Part shown: piece after piece, positions 10,707 to 15,359 of the stretch
Numbering within the stretch: the first letter of the stretch is position 1
How the letters are laid out: every line of letters starts with the position of its first letter
UHGV virus genome: UHGV-1915822
Reading direction: 5' to 3' (one strand)
Length of the DNA stretch: 15,359 nucleotides
Source of the DNA: a virus
Notes under the pieces: generated by a model
Told to the model about the DNA's origin: nothing
Database searches by the model: none
The model's input: only the letters and a program-made list of their open reading frames with translations
Program-made: the position numbers and the translations under genes

Positions 10707-11731
10707 TGGCCGAATATAGCATTGAATTAGGTACATTAGTAAAAATGGGCTATCCGCTTGCTCTTAATGATTACCCGATCTTTCGCGAAGATTACCGGGA
10801 AATACTAAACCGAAAAATTATCGATCACTTCTATTTCCGTGAAATTGGTTTTGAAACGCCCGACCGTTTTAATCATTTCCTCCATATGGTGATGCATGAA
10901 AACATGCCGTATTTCAACCAATTATATGAGAGTGAATTCTTAAAGTTTGACCCTCTCAGCACGGACTATTTTGAAGAGGTATCGGAGGATGTAACGAACA
11001 ATATAAAAGCGGGCAGACGGGACAACACACACACCCAAACCGAAACCACCGGTGACAGGTATACTTCGTTACATTCTCTCGATTCCTCCATCAACGTTGT
11101 TGGTAATGTATCCGACAAGGGAAATATTAACGATACCGAGAACATTACTTCAAAATCAACCCAAACGAATGATTTGACTACACAGGTAAATTCAAGCAGT
11201 CAAGGTGACGGAACACAAGACACGACCGGAAGCAGAACCAAATATTTTTCCGATATGCCGCAAACCGCAATTACCAATACCACAACGGTTAATCCCGATG
11301 GAAGCGTCACCTATTCTACAAACGGTTATGCAACCACCATGGAAACGGAAAGCACAGCCCAGCACGATGTTACCCATACCGAGGAAACGGGGCAATCTAC
11401 ATCGACCAATACCGGCACTATTGTCACCGAGGGAGAAAGCGACCGAACCTATGGAAGAACAACCACAAATACAACCGATGAAACCAACGATAGAACCCAA
11501 AAAGACACCCAACACGAAGATACACAACGCAATATCCTGAACAATTTGTCTTTCTTAGACAATGCGGTCAATAGCGAGGCAACCGATGAAACAAGAAAAA
11601 GTAAAAATGCTCGGAAAGGGCGCTCCGGCGTTTCTCCTTCTTCCCTTATTCAGGAATATCGGAATACGTTTTTAAATATTGATAAACAGGTTATTGCAAG
11701 CCTCGAAAATTTATTTATGGGGGTATTCTAA
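10706..11731 (+). CDS. lower collar protein (phi29 gp11-like) with long polar low-complexity insert
   Basis: 341 aa. Position between portal and appendage genes matches gene 11 in phi29. TAATG overlaps on both sides. The central ~170 aa is T/S/N/D/E/Q-rich low complexity. Confidence 0.6.
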   Translation: MAEYSIELGTLVKMGYPLALNDYPIFREDYREILNRKIIDHFYFREIGFETPDRFNHFLHMVMHENMPYFNQLYESEFLKFDPLSTDYFEEVSEDVTNNIKAGRRDNTHTQTETTGDRYTSLHSLDSSINVVGNVSDKGNINDTENITSKSTQTNDLTTQVNSSSQGDGTQDTTGSRTKYFSDMPQTAITNTTTVNPDGSVTYSTNGYATTMETESTAQHDVTHTEETGQSTSTNTGTIVTEGESDRTYGRTTTNTTDETNDRTQKDTQHEDTQRNILNNLSFLDNAVNSEATDETRKSKNARKGRSGVSPSSLIQEYRNTFLNIDKQVIASLENLFMGVF

Positions 11732-14700
11732 TGTACGATTGCAACAAAAAGCCTTGCACTCCACCTCCTGTGGATCCATGCGAGCATCACCATCCTTGTG
11801 GCCCGGATTTTCCGAATTTTTGCCCTCCTCCTGCTCCCCACCCTGCCCCTTATCAGCCTCCTTGCCCATCCGTTGCGGAGGGCTCTTCGCTATATGAGGC
11901 CGTCAACAATCTGACGAATCGCGTCAACACCTGTATGGCAACCTATAACGATGTAATGGCAAACTGCTATAAAACACTTCACAATCTGGAATGCGCGGCA
12001 CAGGAAAACGGGGCATATTATGATTGCCATGAGGTATGGACAGAAACCGGTTATCAGCCGGACGAAAGCGCAACCTATACCATTATTCATAAAGCCGTTG
12101 TCGACCGACGCGGTGAGCCGATCCGTATGCAATTACATCTTGCTTATGGAAATACGACTAATTCGCAGATTACCCAAAACTTATTTTCTGCATCCGAAGT
12201 AACGCTGGCAGACAAAATTGTCCCGGCTATTCCTCTTACCGGTACAGGCTGGTATGGTAATGCGATTATAAACGGTTGCCCGATTCCTTCAACCGAAGCC
12301 TCTACCTATTATACAGTTGGCTTTACGAAAAAAGGTGTAATGCGCTATTACCCGAATTCGGTATCGGTTGATCAAATGTTAAAGGATACCATTGAGAATG
12401 CCATGGGGTGCTCAGGCGTTCTCATTATCAACAGCCAGATTGCAAATGATGCATTCTTTGAGCATATCCCGAACGCTACCGAACAAAAAGCACGTATCGT
12501 TATGGGCCAAAACTACGATACCCGCGAGGTCATGATTCTCGTATGCGGACAGGAAAACAATGTTGATAAAAAAGGTCTCACTTCTAAAGCGTGCGCCGAA
12601 ATTCTTCTTCAGTATGGTTGTGACATCGCCGTGGAGCTTTCCGAAGGTGACAGCGCAGGAGCATGTGACAAAGGGCAACTGATGTTCGTCCCCGACAATA
12701 ACAATGTGCCGGAGACTTACGCATTCTGGTATATCTCCCGCAAATGCTTCTATTGCAATGATTACCAGCGTGAACTCGCAAAGCTCATGCAGAATTATGG
12801 AACTTGTCTTTGGCAAACATATTTGAATAAAAAGAAAATCGAACAGCTTCGGGAGGATTTGAATACCGAAATCACAAATCGCGAGGATGCCGATCAGGTA
12901 TTGCAAAACCAAATCCTCGAAGAAGTCGATAATCGCGTTAAAGCTGACGAAGTATTGCAAAACCAAATCCTTGCAGAGGTCGATAACCGCGTTAAAGCAG
13001 ACGAAGTATTACAAAACCAAATCCTCGCGGAAGTGGACAACAGAGTTAACGCAGATAATGTCCTGCAAAACCAGATCCTTACGGAAGTAGACGCGAGAAA
13101 AAATGCAGACGATGTTTTACAAAATCAAATCCTTGAGGAAGTAAAAAATAGAGAAAACGCAGATAACACCCTGCAAGAACAAATCCTTACCGAAACAAAC
13201 GCAAGAATCGATGCGGATGAATCCCTGCAAAATCAAATTATTACCGAAACAAACGCCCGTGTCGCGTATGATGAAAACTTACAAGCACAAATTACAAAAG
13301 AAGTAACCGATAGAACAAATGCGGATGCTACCCTGCATCAAGAAATATTAACCGAACAAGGCGAAAGAATCGCCGCAGATGAAGTTCTTCAAAGAAATAT
13401 CAACGAAGAAGCCGCTACTAGAGCAGAAGAAGATACAAAACTACAAGGTAATATTGATGCAGAAACAACCGCCAGACAAGAAGCAGATGCCACCCTGCAA
13501 TCGAATATCGACGCATTGGCACAAAGAGTAACCGTCCTTGAAACGGATGTCGATCAGCTTCAAACCCTCTATAATTCCTTGCAGGAACAAACCGCCGCAA
13601 TGGATACAGCCATTACTTCCATTCAGCAAACGATTGCTTCTATTGAAACTTCTCTGAATAATGTAAAAACCTCTATCGACAATATCACCAACGGTACAAC
13701 ACTCCTGCCGTATTTGCCGATCAAAGGCGGTACAATGCAAGGTTCCATCAACATGAATAATAAATCGATTACCAATGTTCCTTCTCCTTCAGCAGACGGC
13801 GACGCGGTAAACAAAAAATATGTTGATGACGCGATTGCAGGTGGTATTACTCCTCCAACAGGCGACTATCTCCCCTTATCCGGCGGTACCATGACGGGAA
13901 ACATCAACATGAATAACAACCGTGTAACCTCTGTAGGAGCGCCCAGCGCAGGTACAGATGCAGTAAATAAAGACTATGTTGATGATGAAATCGCAACCGC
14001 AGGAGATGGAAAATTCCTTCCGTTGGCAGGTGGCGCATTAACCGGCGCAGTTACTACTACCGAAACTGAATTTGAAAATAATGAGCTTGTTACAAAATCG
14101 TATGTAGATGGACAGGTTGCAACCGCTGGAAATGGAAAATTCCTTCCATTAGCAGGTGGAACCATGACCGGGGCAATCAACATGGGTAATCAGAAAGTAA
14201 CAGCGGTCGCTACGCCTACTACAGGCACCGATGCTACCAATAAAACCTATGTGGATAACGCCATTTCTACTGCCGGAAATGGAAAATTCCTGCCGTTAGC
14301 AGGCGGAACTATGACCGGAGCAATCAATATGGGTAATCAAAAAGTAACAGCAGTCGCCACCCCGACAGATGGCTCAGATGCCGCAAATAAACAATATGTT
14401 GATCAAGCTGTTGCCGGTTCGTCTTATACGCTGCCTGCCGCTACTACTACTACACTTGGAGGTGTAAAGGTTGGAGAAGGTTTGTCCGTTACCGCGGATG
14501 GCACGTTGTCGGCTACGGGTGGAAGCACAGATATTCCCATTGCAAGCGATACCGTTCTTGGTGGAATTAAAGTCGGGGAATCACTTTCTATTGAAGCTGA
14601 CGGTACTTTAAGCGTTGTTGCATCCGATAATCCTACTACTCCGCGAATGCCTGTTAATAAAGAGTATGTCGATAATCAGCTCGACAATTTTGTAGCAAAA

Positions 14701-15318
14701 ACTGGCGATACTATGACAGGGCATTTATCAATGAGCAATCGATCAAACGTTAAAATTTTAGATGATGACGATGAACCTGTTGCAAGTCTTGGTTATCTGT
14801 TTGGCGTTACAAAACCTAGAGGAATTATATCTTTCTTAAAAAACCCGGGCACCATCAATAACCTATTTAATGAAAATTATCTTGCTACGTATGCCTTAAA
14901 TCAACGAGAAGCTGTAAACTATGTAGGACGTACATTCAAATTCGGTGGAACCTTTACGGGAGGAGCATATAACTGTGTTGCTACACATTTAGGATTTGAA
15001 GATCCTAATGGTAAGGCTTCCAGATATGCAAATGTCAAATTAGATATTGACATCTATTGCTTAACTCCTATTACGACTGCTCCTTCCTTTGCCTTCAATC
15101 TACCAACTTCTATTTTTACGGTAAGAACTGGAACTATCACAGACGAAATATGGAAATTTACATACGCAGATAATGTATATTTGAATATTACTGCTCAAGA
15201 AGGTGGTACTATTATTTGTAAATTTGGAGGTTCACCTGCCGTTGGTAGGCATATTTCTGCTACGATTATACCTTATCAGCTTGCTTGGAGTATTGATCCG
15301 GCTATCAATCTTCATTAA
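11731..15318 (+). CDS. pre-neck appendage / tail fibre protein (gp12-position), multidomain
   Basis: 1195 aa at the gene-12 position. Contains a Cys/Pro/His-rich N-terminus, an N-terminal globular region of ~280 aa, about 15 tandem 14-aa repeats, five phage tail-fibre-type repeats (LPLAGGTMTG...NK.YVD), two GG-VKVGE-DGTLS repeats, and a distinct C-terminal domain. Confidence 0.85.
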   Translation: MYDCNKKPCTPPPVDPCEHHHPCGPDFPNFCPPPAPHPAPYQPPCPSVAEGSSLYEAVNNLTNRVNTCMATYNDVMANCYKTLHNLECAAQENGAYYDCHEVWTETGYQPDESATYTIIHKAVVDRRGEPIRMQLHLAYGNTTNSQITQNLFSASEVTLADKIVPAIPLTGTGWYGNAIINGCPIPSTEASTYYTVGFTKKGVMRYYPNSVSVDQMLKDTIENAMGCSGVLIINSQIANDAFFEHIPNATEQKARIVMGQNYDTREVMILVCGQENNVDKKGLTSKACAEILLQYGCDIAVELSEGDSAGACDKGQLMFVPDNNNVPETYAFWYISRKCFYCNDYQRELAKLMQNYGTCLWQTYLNKKKIEQLREDLNTEITNREDADQVLQNQILEEVDNRVKADEVLQNQILAEVDNRVKADEVLQNQILAEVDNRVNADNVLQNQILTEVDARKNADDVLQNQILEEVKNRENADNTLQEQILTETNARIDADESLQNQIITETNARVAYDENLQAQITKEVTDRTNADATLHQEILTEQGERIAADEVLQRNINEEAATRAEEDTKLQGNIDAETTARQEADATLQSNIDALAQRVTVLETDVDQLQTLYNSLQEQTAAMDTAITSIQQTIASIETSLNNVKTSIDNITNGTTLLPYLPIKGGTMQGSINMNNKSITNVPSPSADGDAVNKKYVDDAIAGGITPPTGDYLPLSGGTMTGNINMNNNRVTSVGAPSAGTDAVNKDYVDDEIATAGDGKFLPLAGGALTGAVTTTETEFENNELVTKSYVDGQVATAGNGKFLPLAGGTMTGAINMGNQKVTAVATPTTGTDATNKTYVDNAISTAGNGKFLPLAGGTMTGAINMGNQKVTAVATPTDGSDAANKQYVDQAVAGSSYTLPAATTTTLGGVKVGEGLSVTADGTLSATGGSTDIPIASDTVLGGIKVGESLSIEADGTLSVVASDNPTTPRMPVNKEYVDNQLDNFVAKTGDTMTGHLSMSNRSNVKILDDDDEPVASLGYLFGVTKPRGIISFLKNPGTINNLFNENYLATYALNQREAVNYVGRTFKFGGTFTGGAYNCVATHLGFEDPNGKASRYANVKLDIDIYCLTPITTAPSFAFNLPTSIFTVRTGTITDEIWKFTYADNVYLNITAQEGGTIICKFGGSPAVGRHISATIIPYQLAWSIDPAINLH
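12868..13530 (+). repeat. tandem 42-bp (14-codon) repeats, about 15 units, inside the appendage gene
   Basis: Unit consensus at protein level is roughly N-R-x-x-A-D-x-x-L-Q-N-Q-I-L-x-E-V-D. Adjacent DNA units are near-identical, for example GTATTGCAAAACCAAATCCT recurs at 42-bp spacing. Confidence 0.8.
13711..14420 (+). repeat. five tail-fibre repeat units of 126-147 bp; the last two are near-identical 147-bp direct repeats
   Basis: Protein units LP(L/I)xGGTMxG.INM.N..VT.V..P....DA.NK.YVD. The DNA copies beginning near 14125 and 14272 are almost identical over about 147 bp. Confidence 0.8.
14431..14620 (+). repeat. two ~30-codon repeats (T-LGG-KVGE-L-ADGTLS)
   Basis: LPAATTTTLGGVKVGEGLSVTADGTLSA followed by IPIASDTVLGGIKVGESLSIEADGTLSV. 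Confidence 0.7.
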
Positions 15319-15359
15319 CACTCCTTTCTTTACAAGCGCTGGCAGATGCAGCTCTGTCG

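Follow-up and report, generated by a model that had tools for sequence, protein, structure and literature searches.

The tandem repeat inside a large structural gene of virus genome UHGV-1915822, of which a stretch of 15,359 nucleotides (referred to as the window) was analyzed, raises the question of what kind of structure the repeat encodes and how readily the length of this structure changes among related phages. The open reading frame that carries the repeat encodes a protein of 1,195 aa and lies directly 3' of the lower-collar gene, which is the position of gp12 in phi29. Its neighboring genes gave PHROG matches to terminal protein, PolB, terminase, major head protein, tail, upper collar, and lower collar, and the gene order around it is the same in the relatives L001 to L006. 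The source phage is a small phi29-like gut podophage, and its nearest PolB match is in Hungatella phage CH17P1. The features of the gene are compiled in Table 1.

Table 1. Features of the fiber gene and its product in the window
Feature	Position (nt)	Strand	Basis
Appendage/fiber gene, 1,195 aa	11731..15318	+	ORF list and translation
Pro/Cys/His-rich N-terminal 48 aa, predicted to be disordered	11731..11874	+	Translation; pLDDT 33-39
NAGPA/DUF2233 phosphodiester glycosidase-like domain (putative), ~aa 95-345, approximate boundaries	12013..12765	+	
Non-repeating lead-in of the long helix, aa 341-379	12751..12867	+	AF2, pLDDT 62-90
12 tandem units of 54 nt (18 aa), aa 380-595	12868..13515	+	Periodicity, AF2 helix, conserved face
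Heptad-type coiled-coil segment, aa 596-653, continuing the array helix; ends at NITNGTTLLPYLPIKGGTM	13516..13689	+	
Beta-structured fiber modules (GGTMTGxINM...DAxNKxYVD), ~42-52 aa each	13690..14421	+	PHROG tail-fiber and head-decoration matches
147-nt tandem pair inside the beta-structured modules	14117-14408	+	
Two copies of a phi29 head fiber-like motif (YTLPAATTTTLGGVKVG... / IPIASDTVLGGIKVG...)	14422..14580	+	PDB 3qc7 alignment
Variable C-terminal domain, ~aa 951-1195	14581..15318	+	No family match

The array has a period of 54 nt, corresponding to 18 residues. Its DNA self-identity amounts to 0.627 at lag 54, 0.613 at lag 108, and 0.575 at lag 162, with all other lags at 0.23 to 0.35, and Tandem Repeats Finder reported only the periods 54 and 108. 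A first-pass annotation of this DNA had described a tandem repeat in the plus-strand coding frame from position 12868 onward, which is correct to the exact start and far above chance, and the L-Q-N-Q-I-L motif and conserved charged positions that it named are present. The period of 42 bp or 14 residues that it assigned was rejected because self-identity at lag 42 (0.333) is at background. In place of the roughly 15 units reported for 12868 to 13530 there are 12, ending at 13515; the last 15 nt belong to the non-repeating heptad-type segment. The unit consensus is E-V-x-x-R-x-x-A-D-x-x-L-Q-x-Q-I-L-x, in which six positions are invariant (E1, R5, D9, L12, Q13, and I16) and positions 2, 11, and 17 are often occupied by V or L. 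The 216 residues of the array include 2 Gly and no Pro; 32% are charged, and K accounts for 2.8%. Adjacent units had also been taken to be nearly identical at the DNA level and to slip easily, which does not hold: the identities of successive neighbors are 74, 89, 72, 69, 63, 65, 63, 44, 46, 52, and 65%, DNA identity over the units spans 43 to 89%, the longest exact in-register match in the whole array measures 20 nt, and the pooled synonymous difference between adjacent units (0.64) is near saturation.

The minus strand had likewise been described as open across the repeat. An ORF at 12412 to 12966 does exist on this strand, but its overlap with the array is limited to 99 of 555 nt, and no minus-strand ORF of at least 60 aa spans 12967 to 13417. 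Since the remainder is antisense to the N-terminal domain, repeat composition, to which the ORF had been attributed, does not explain it. Most of the ORF is outside the array, it is interrupted by 4 internal stops in the 81%-identical relative L002, and it is therefore not a gene. An Rfam scan of the window gave no matches, and no terminal inverted repeat was found between its first and last 80 nt.

When the monomer was modeled with AF2 using an alignment of 8 sequences, one unbroken helix was predicted from aa 341 to aa 653, with pLDDT values of 90 to 96 across the array. The helix begins at residue 2 of the modeled fragment (aa 341), and a second model breaks it at aa 362 to 366, so that its start is approximate. 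At 100 degrees per residue, the six invariant positions fall within an arc of 120 degrees (chance, 0.006) and hence on one face of a helix that completes 5 turns in 18 residues. Hydrophobicity shows spectral peaks at 3.50 residues in the heptad segment and at 4.5 and 2.0 residues in the array, where the signal at 3.6 is weak (power of 36 versus 344 at 4.5). In an 18/5 model, only two to three of the five layers per unit are hydrophobic core layers, and E, R, and D would be placed in the core or close to it, an atypical pattern for a coiled coil. The heptad segment showed weak matches to the reovirus sigma-1 coiled coil and to other coiled-coil families. With the array alone, a Pfam search retrieved no family and a PDB sequence search nothing at an E value of 10 or below; the single-helix model had no Foldseek matches in the PDB, as expected for one long helix. 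A PDB search with a profile of 24 three-unit segments retrieved chain r of entry 23sh alone, a protein named "tail fiber gp9" and deposited as 3 chains, in which homology extends over about 1.5 units; solved structures thus cover at most this much of the 18-residue motif. The alpha-helical stalk proposed by the first-pass annotation is supported by the predicted helix, which scores above 90 in pLDDT along the array, although not with a period of 14 residues. The array is likely to be a non-heptad coiled-coil stalk, probably trimeric, that acts as a length-setting rigid spacer and changes in whole units.

Two other structures have to be weighed against this coiled-coil stalk. A non-helical shaft such as a triple beta-helix or, as in the stem of the phi29 head fiber, a helix-turn-helix supercoil would agree with the frequency of beta-structured fibers among phages and with the phi29 head fiber-like modules in the C-terminal part of the same protein. 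It is nevertheless very improbable, given that the array has no Gly/Pro turns, that AF2 predicts a continuous helix with pLDDT above 90, that the head-fiber match (aa 802 to 924) is outside the array, and that insertion quanta of 7 and 11 residues, described below, are specific to helical packing. The second structure is a single alpha-helix (SAH), in which the E1-R5-D9 ladder at i and i+4 would stabilize a monomeric rod without packing between chains. The invariance of E, R, and D at i, i+4, and i+8, the high confidence of AF2 in an isolated helix, and the weak 3.6-residue hydrophobic periodicity are what such a rod would show. An SAH is still unlikely in view of the modest charge content, with Lys at 3%, the invariance of L12 and I16, the frequent V and L at positions 2, 11, and 17, the location of all conserved residues on one face, the use of the motif by stalks of autotransporters that are obligate trimers, and the unbroken passage of the helix into a canonical heptad coil.

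In the architecture proposed for the coiled-coil stalk, the 648-nt array would encode twelve 18-residue units within a single uninterrupted alpha-helix. Lead-in, array, and heptad segment together would form a helix of about 290 to 313 residues (from aa ~341 or ~367 to aa 653), which at 0.15 nm per residue would measure some 43 to 47 nm, with about 32 nm contributed by the array at 2.7 nm per unit. The period may be read as a heptad plus a hendecad, completing 5 turns at 3.60 residues per turn, and a framework for such periodicities, in which 7+7+4 corresponds to 18/5, is available (PMC4786415). From this composition of the period, we infer that the three helices of a homotrimeric fiber would form a parallel coiled coil with almost no twist, in which L12, I16, and V2 build hydrophobic layers and E1, R5, and D9, on the same face, build layers of a polar or salt-bridge kind. 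We also infer that the rod would be a rigid spacer between the conserved N-terminal part, which contains the NAGPA-like domain and presumably provides the attachment to the virion, and the variable beta modules with the C-terminal tip. It is reasonable to suppose that stalk length sets the reach of this receptor-binding tip.

Clear length differences emerge when the stalks of related phages are compared. Among 120 homologues, stalk length ranges from 132 to 319 aa, and one length is common to 94 of them. Close pairs differ by -18 aa (window versus P0004, and P0007 versus P0010) or by -72 aa (P0005 versus P0007), and P0006 differs from P0017 by -108 aa at 98.5% identity elsewhere, a contrast of twelve-unit and six-unit lineages that would correspond to about 16 nm of appendage length. 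The junction of the latter deletion is inside a 12-nt in-register microhomology, which fits recombination between units. Another type of change is that of P0002, the stalk of which has indels of -7, +11, and -7 residues. Its aa 391 to 545 are 97% identical to the P0013 lineage, and its flanks are 97 to 100% identical to the window. P0002 is thus a mosaic with a swapped stalk cassette. Rod length would evolve by whole, phase-preserving units, in steps of 18 residues or of 7 or 11, and these steps may come from in-register recombination of diverged units and from the exchange of stalk cassettes between lineages.

Within groups of closely related phages, the array is stable. In the nearest cluster at 90% identity, made up of the representative P0001 and 11 further members, stalk length is the same in 12 of 12, with the motif count detecting 11 of the 12 units. 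In three clusters at 90% identity, the 18-mer array is unchanged in 12 of 12, 13 of 14, and 15 of 15 members, and the few length changes within clusters are located in the heptad segment. Units are one-to-one orthologous between genomes, with identity highest on the diagonal besides some reshuffling of units 1 to 5 in L002, and concerted evolution or homogenization of the units was rejected on account of this diagonal peak. The array has a pN/pS of 0.04 to 0.13, indicating purifying selection. The expectation of the first-pass annotation that stalk length varies between isolates is therefore borne out between related phages (by 18, 72, and 108 aa) but not in the nearest cluster at 90% identity. 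The proneness to expansion and contraction at the isolate level that it had ascribed to the array is not supported in view of the orthology of the units, the purifying selection, and the restriction of the variation to more distant lineages.

These data bear on a reading of the array as a hypervariable contingency repeat, in which units slip or recombine often, copy number varies within populations and between isolates, and host range is tuned fast. There are indeed unit-sized indels between relatives and one junction with in-register microhomology, and a neighboring fiber repeat of 49 aa varies inside a 98%-identical cluster (P0144). However, this reading is largely refuted, and is as improbable as the SAH, in light of the 44 to 89% identity of adjacent units with exact matches of no more than 20 nt, their synonymous difference of about 0.64, the one-to-one orthology, the constancy of the array in the three clusters, and the single stalk length of most homologues. 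The array changes slowly and in whole units, and it is not a hypervariable locus. An assembly artefact, which the first-pass annotation had considered as well, would mean that short-read assembly expanded or collapsed the array, and metagenome assembly is indeed the source of the window and of the related sequences. The probability of such an artefact is negligible, as independently made assemblies of different samples in ENA and Logan (L003, L004, and L002) contain the same 12 units, P0001 and its 11 fellow cluster members have one stalk length, units whose longest exact repeat measures 20 nt are too diverged to be collapsed, and purifying selection acts on a reading frame that is intact. As a heritable trait, rod length changes across the phage family by whole units, and since there are lineages with 132 to 319 stalk residues, it can be compared with the depth of the host cell envelope or engineered in steps of 2.7 nm.

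The longest gene of a small gut phage can now be read as encoding a rod of predicted helical structure, about 45 nm in length, that is preceded by an N-terminal domain resembling an enzyme and followed by modular domains of the fiber and tip. In the N-terminal 48 aa, the Cys and Pro columns are invariant among 28 homologues. The domain that follows is the best-conserved region of the protein (59 to 100% identity within the family). Its aa 187 to 325 matched PF09992 with 30.1 bits, above the gathering cutoff of 25, and the top 12 Foldseek matches of its model were all NAGPA or DUF2233 structures, with E values of 1e-7 to 5e-6. The best of these (6pki, 3ohg, and 6pky) had a probability of 1.00 at TM-scores of only 0.38 to 0.59, and the query model, with a mean pLDDT of 50, served for a fold-level match only. 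From the Pfam and fold matches, the domain is a putative one resembling the NAGPA/DUF2233 (PF09992) fold. Tail-fiber PHROGs matched the C-terminal half of the protein. KGG-V/T-M and DAxxKxYVD, both present in its beta-structured modules, have been tabulated as coiled-coil-to-beta and beta-to-coiled-coil transitions, respectively, for the trimeric HylP1 tail fiber (PMC4786415). PF11133 scored below its cutoff in the region of the head fiber-like motifs and above it in the homologue P0005. Most indels and substitutions among close relatives fall in the C-terminal domain, which is presumed to be the distal, receptor-binding end.

Given its gene position directly after the lower collar, the protein corresponds in location to the phi29 pre-neck appendage gp12, a tailspike of the beta-helix type that lacks a long helix. 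No match to gp12 was obtained in a PDB sequence search at an E value of 1 or below or in Pfam, and, in contrast to gp12, the protein of the window has an enzyme-like domain of NAGPA-like fold N-terminal to the rod, the predicted length of which is about 45 nm. The protein probably serves a phi29-like podophage as its organelle of host adsorption, equipped with a putative enzyme domain for a cell-wall polymer. The phi29 head fiber gp8.5 is similar in part, as aa 802 to 924 match 3qc7, including the PAATTTTLGGVK motif, and PF11133 matches occur in homologues. The stem of gp8.5 is a helix-turn-helix supercoil of short segments, whereas the array is predicted to be one continuous helix, and the 3qc7 match is outside of it. 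T4 fibritin, the P22 gp26 tail needle, reovirus sigma-1, and the N-terminal region of HylP1 likewise have a long parallel helix that joins a virion-proximal domain to distal beta modules, and the KGG(T/V)M transition with which the coil of the window protein ends is one that is listed for HylP1, which is from a streptococcal prophage (PMC4786415). Unlike in those shafts, a regular 18/5 repeat dominates here, with charged residues on the core face. The 29-residue repeat of SF-assemblin/beta-giardin (PF06705), which is also non-heptad, was matched by the 29-residue (18+11) stalk of P0002 and P0013 and not by the array of the window; the score was borderline, and the likeness is one of periodicity and composition with no sign of common descent. 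A helical-rod fiber stalk is ordinary in kind, a modest curiosity, and current understanding is not overturned, because coiled-coil fiber stalks are commonplace.

The motif itself is widespread. As E-x3-R-x3-D-x2-L-x3-I, it was found in at least 2,359 clusters at 50% identity, in arrays of up to 27 uninterrupted units. It is present upstream of Collar, Gp53-like_C, and Gp10_C fiber domains and in a tail fiber of Streptococcus phage vB_SbRt-pBovineS21, and it makes up the stalk in YadA membrane-anchored proteins (P0124 and P0125). YadA-anchored proteins are obligate trimers. The stalks of the latter two proteins, with YadA_anchor and YadA_stalk matches, have the identical repeated motif E-x-x-A/T-R-x-x-A-D-x-x-L-Q-x-N-I-x-x and the same spacer role, and non-heptad periodicities are typical of trimeric autotransporter stalks (PMC4786415). 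However, the protein of the window is a virion protein without membrane anchor, signal peptide, or head domain; it had no match to PF03895, the YadA-like beta-barrel anchor, and its gene sits in a phage structural module. Its assignment as a trimeric autotransporter adhesin was rejected for want of this C-terminal anchor. Across 149 representatives with less than 50% mutual identity, irregular motif spacings are mainly 29, 25, 32, 40, and 43 residues, i.e., 18+7a+11b, and 76% of them keep the helical phase within 40 degrees, compared with an expected 24%; spacings of 18+7 and 18+11 residues are as expected for a coiled coil. Pfam has no model for the 18-residue motif, and a search of the literature on 18-residue coiled-coil repeats in phages or tail fibers gave nothing usable besides the periodicity theory of PMC4786415. 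It may tentatively be proposed that the motif represents a large stalk-repeat family, undescribed in databases and common to phage fibers and bacterial trimeric adhesins, that forms a virtually untwisted trimeric bundle with alternating hydrophobic and buried Glu/Arg/Asp salt-bridge layers and that provides phages with a ruler of 2.7-nm steps and a conserved recombination joint for swapping receptor-binding modules. A profile of this motif would improve the annotation of phage fibers and adhesins.

A tandem repeat does lie where the first-pass annotation had placed about 15 units of 42 bp, encoding a 14-residue periodic stalk, at 12868-13530, and its exact start, its frame and the conserved motif agree with that description. 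However, the array stops at 13515, and its period was found to be 54 nt, or 18 residues, which gives twelve units in the coding frame. Within the array, DNA self-identity was 0.63 at a lag of 54, 0.61 at 108 and 0.58 at 162, and 0.23-0.35 at every other lag, with lag 42 at a background value of 0.33; Tandem Repeats Finder returned periods of 54 and 108 only. Units 1, 2 and 12 (the last) read EITNREDADQVLQNQILE, EVDNRVKADEVLQNQILA and ETTARQEADATLQSNIDA, respectively. E1, R5, D9, L12 and I16 are invariant in all twelve units, Q13 (11/12) and A8 (10/12) are nearly so, and downstream of residue 595 (LAQRVTVLETDVDQLQTL...) the repeat pattern is lost. Adjacent units had also been described as nearly identical in DNA, but their identity, 74-89% at the 5' end, drops to 44-65% towards the 3' end (44-89% overall), and exact in-register matches are no longer than 20 nt. 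Units 1 and 2 encode the same protein sequence with 6 synonymous differences, and for adjacent units pooled the synonymous difference is 0.64. Given this low DNA identity and high synonymous difference, the units are old duplications kept by selection on the protein.

The proposed alpha-helical stalk was borne out by an AlphaFold2 model of aa 340-700 (8-sequence alignment), which contains a single uninterrupted helix at aa 341-653 with block-mean pLDDT values of 90-96 across the whole array. The array holds 0 prolines and 2 glycines, and on a helical wheel of 100 degrees per residue (18 residues in five turns) six conserved positions fall within a 120-degree arc, for which the chance with six random positions is 0.006. 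A period of 18 corresponds to a heptad plus a hendecad, the 18/5 periodicity resulting from a four-residue stutter delocalised over two heptads. An undistorted helix has 3.63 residues per turn, so that bundles with a value as near to it as 3.60 show hardly any twist (Hartmann et al. 2016, PMC4786415). The apolar residues of the conserved face are just L12, I16 and, usually, V2, and E1, R5 and D9 are located there too; in the hydrophobicity spectrum of the array, components of 4.5 and 2 residues dominate and the 3.6-residue component is weak. In our interpretation, hydrophobic and salt-bridged layers would alternate in a trimer. The 58 residues that follow the array (aa 596-653) have a hydrophobic periodicity of exactly 3.50 and are a canonical heptad coil. 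This segment terminates in ...LPYLPIKGGTMQG, a sequence similar to KKLNLKGGVM, which is listed as a coiled-coil-to-beta transition of the trimeric HylP1 tail fibre, and the recurring downstream motif DAxNKxYVD is similar to the beta-to-coiled-coil "short neck" transition (PMC4786415).

The main structural rival to a bundled coiled coil is a single-alpha-helix domain, with which the modest charge content (32% charged, 3% Lys), the invariant Leu and Ile and the one-sided conservation are at odds, as is the occurrence of the motif in other proteins. With the array by itself as query, a search retrieved proteins that carry YadA membrane anchors as well as YadA stalk domains (P0124 and P0125, e.g., with repeated ETAARTAADATLQNNIDA) and phage fibre proteins with terminal Collar, Gp53-like_C or Gp10_C domains (P0123, P0121 and P0128). 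The same repeat is present in the tail-fibre gene of the Rountreeviridae Streptococcus phage vB_SbRt-pBovineS21, which follows an adaptor gene and has RITVLETAL after the repeat, parallel to QRVTVLETDV in the window. An exhaustive phmmer search over 1.84 billion representatives matched 2,359 clusters at E<=1e-3, 631 of them at E<=1e-10. Among the best 149 matches, the 18-residue motif spacing occurs 1,299 times, in unbroken runs of up to 27 units, and the irregular spacings (29, 25, 32, 40, 43, etc.) equal 18 plus multiples of 7 and 11. Helical phase is kept within 40 degrees in 76% of 325 irregular spacings versus 24% expected, in counts that are not fully independent; this preservation of phase favours a helical bundle and, as a sequence pattern, would be hard to explain unless the repeat belongs to one. 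No Pfam family covers the repeat, and a PDB sequence search with the array gave no matching chain; a profile of 24 three-unit segments matched only about 1.5 units in the PDB, in 23sh chain r ("tail fiber gp9", three chains deposited). As a probable coiled-coil shaft of a phage fibre, the array is familiar in kind, and it uses a widespread 18/5 repeat without a family model in the databases searched here.

At 15.4 kb, the window is in essence a small phi29-like podophage genome. Genes identified by PHROG matches comprise an SSB, a terminal protein, a protein-primed family-B DNA polymerase, a packaging ATPase and an M23 endolysin, together with the major head protein, a gp9-like tail protein and the upper and lower collar, and this gene order recurs on ~15-kb contigs from independent metagenomes. 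According to its polymerase, the closest cultured relative is Hungatella phage CH17P1 (60% identity), followed by Eggerthella phages, Clostridium innocuum phages and unannotated human-faeces contigs. The fibre gene, immediately after the lower collar, occupies the place of the phi29 gp12 appendage gene. An Rfam scan of the whole window found no family at gathering score, the phi29 packaging RNA (pRNA) included; a divergent pRNA may be present. The window ends (1-80 versus 15280-15359) are not mutual inverted repeats, and probably the contig lacks the true terminal-protein-linked ends or the terminal repeats are very short. Near the left end, a 12-nt tandem repeat (TTTTGAAAAAAG, 3.2 copies) is located at 319-356 within the first listed ORF (164-589).

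Features of the fibre gene and the opposite strand
Feature	Position	Strand	Remarks
Fibre/appendage gene	11731-15318	+	1195 aa; last and longest gene of the window; holds the array
Pro/Cys/His-rich N-terminus (MYDCNKKPCTPPPVDPCEHHHPCGPDFPNFCPPPAPHPAPYQPPCPSV)	11731-11874 (aa 1-48)	+	predicted disordered
NAGPA/DUF2233-like phosphodiester glycosidase domain	~12013-12765 (aa ~95-345)	+	PF09992, 30.1 bits, above cutoff
Antisense ORF	12412-12966	-	184 aa, TTG start; mostly opposite the N-terminal domain
Array	12868-13515	+	twelve 18-residue units in the coding frame, aa 380-595
Fibre modules GGTMTGxINM...DAxNKxYVD	13690-14421	+	second repeat system; tandem pair 14117-14408

The fibre protein has more than 1,000 homologues, nearly all on ~15-kb contigs, in which 132 to 319 residues separate the end of the N-terminal domain from the first GGTM motif (305 in the window; 132 in 94 of the 120 best homologues). 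Stalk length differs between relatives, as had been suggested, and the stalks of close pairs differ by whole numbers of units: 18 (window versus P0004, last unit lost; P0007 versus P0010), 72 (P0005 versus P0007) or 108 residues. The last difference, six units between P0006 and P0017, which are 98.5% identical elsewhere, has its DNA junction inside a 12-nt stretch common, in register, to both parental units. The form without these six units is present in four distinct 684-aa proteins from different samples, for which reason a one-off mis-assembly was rejected.

The homologue P0002 is a clean mosaic: its residues 1-390 and 546-1192 are 100% and 97% identical to the window, whereas residues 391-545 match the P0013 lineage, with its stalk of 29-residue (18+11) repeats, at 97% identity and the window at only 50%. 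In P0002 (92% identical overall), this cassette replaces aa 391-548 of the window (nt ~12901-13374) with a net length change of only 3 residues (-7, +11, -7). The flanks of the P0013 lineage are only 59-65% identical, and the breakpoints lie inside conserved repeat motifs.

The array is not unstable, contrary to the view that it is hypervariable and prone to slippage. Copy number varies between lineages, but a single stalk length is common to the 12 members of the 90%-identity cluster closest to the window; this clustering could exclude large-indel variants, whereas a single-unit change (1.5% of length) would remain inside the cluster, and none was seen. In two other clusters a few members vary in length, and their changes fall within the heptad segment (-16, -7) or the fibre modules downstream of it. 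Each window unit best matches the unit of the same number in the related contigs L003 (85-100%) and L001 (87-98%), which mostly holds for L002 (56-85%) with some shuffling among units 1-5, and pN/pS in the orthologous arrays is 0.04-0.13. Overall, the first-pass observation was partly confirmed, and its interpretation is partly supported.

We propose a rigid helical rod, ~43-47 nm long and most likely a parallel trimer, that is made up of the array together with its flanks. Other phi29-like fibres are attached to the collar by their N-termini, and by analogy we infer that the N-terminus is virion-proximal; the N-terminus of the Streptococcus phage fibre protein matches those of the P68 and Andhra fibres. 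In this orientation, the rod would set the distance to which the tip projects. Its length would evolve in 2.7-nm steps via rare in-register recombination between diverged units, and the conserved motif may double as a crossover point for swapping stalk and tip cassettes.

Within the protein, conservation is highest on the N-terminal side (59-100% identity). Foldseek, with a low-confidence model of the N-terminal domain, retrieved 6pki and 3ohg at E 1e-7, and the NAGPA-like domain may be a cell-wall-polymer enzyme that takes the part played in phi29 by the enzymatic domain of gp12. In aa 1-48 the Cys and Pro columns are invariant in 28 homologues, and this segment could serve in metal binding or collar docking. 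The C-terminal side consists of beta-structured fibre modules, phi29 head-fibre-like motifs and a variable terminal domain. The tandem pair of modules has a unit of 147 nt (49 aa) with 79-82% identity and, unlike the 18-residue array, the modules vary among near-identical relatives: P0144, at 98% identity, is one 49-aa unit short, and a 42-aa module is absent from P0004.

The open minus strand had been attributed to repeat composition, but no more than 99 nt of the antisense ORF lie within the array. Three close relatives (L001, L003 and L004) keep it open, and the 81%-identical relative L002 has four stops in it, on which grounds it was rejected as a gene and regarded as an ORF open by chance opposite the N-terminal domain. 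Two extra genes (158 aa; 194-332 aa) are located downstream of the fibre gene in the related contigs L005 (9410-10488) and L006 (11429-12921), a feature of lineages whose fibre protein is short (684-802 aa); the distal appendage may therefore have genes of its own in these lineages.
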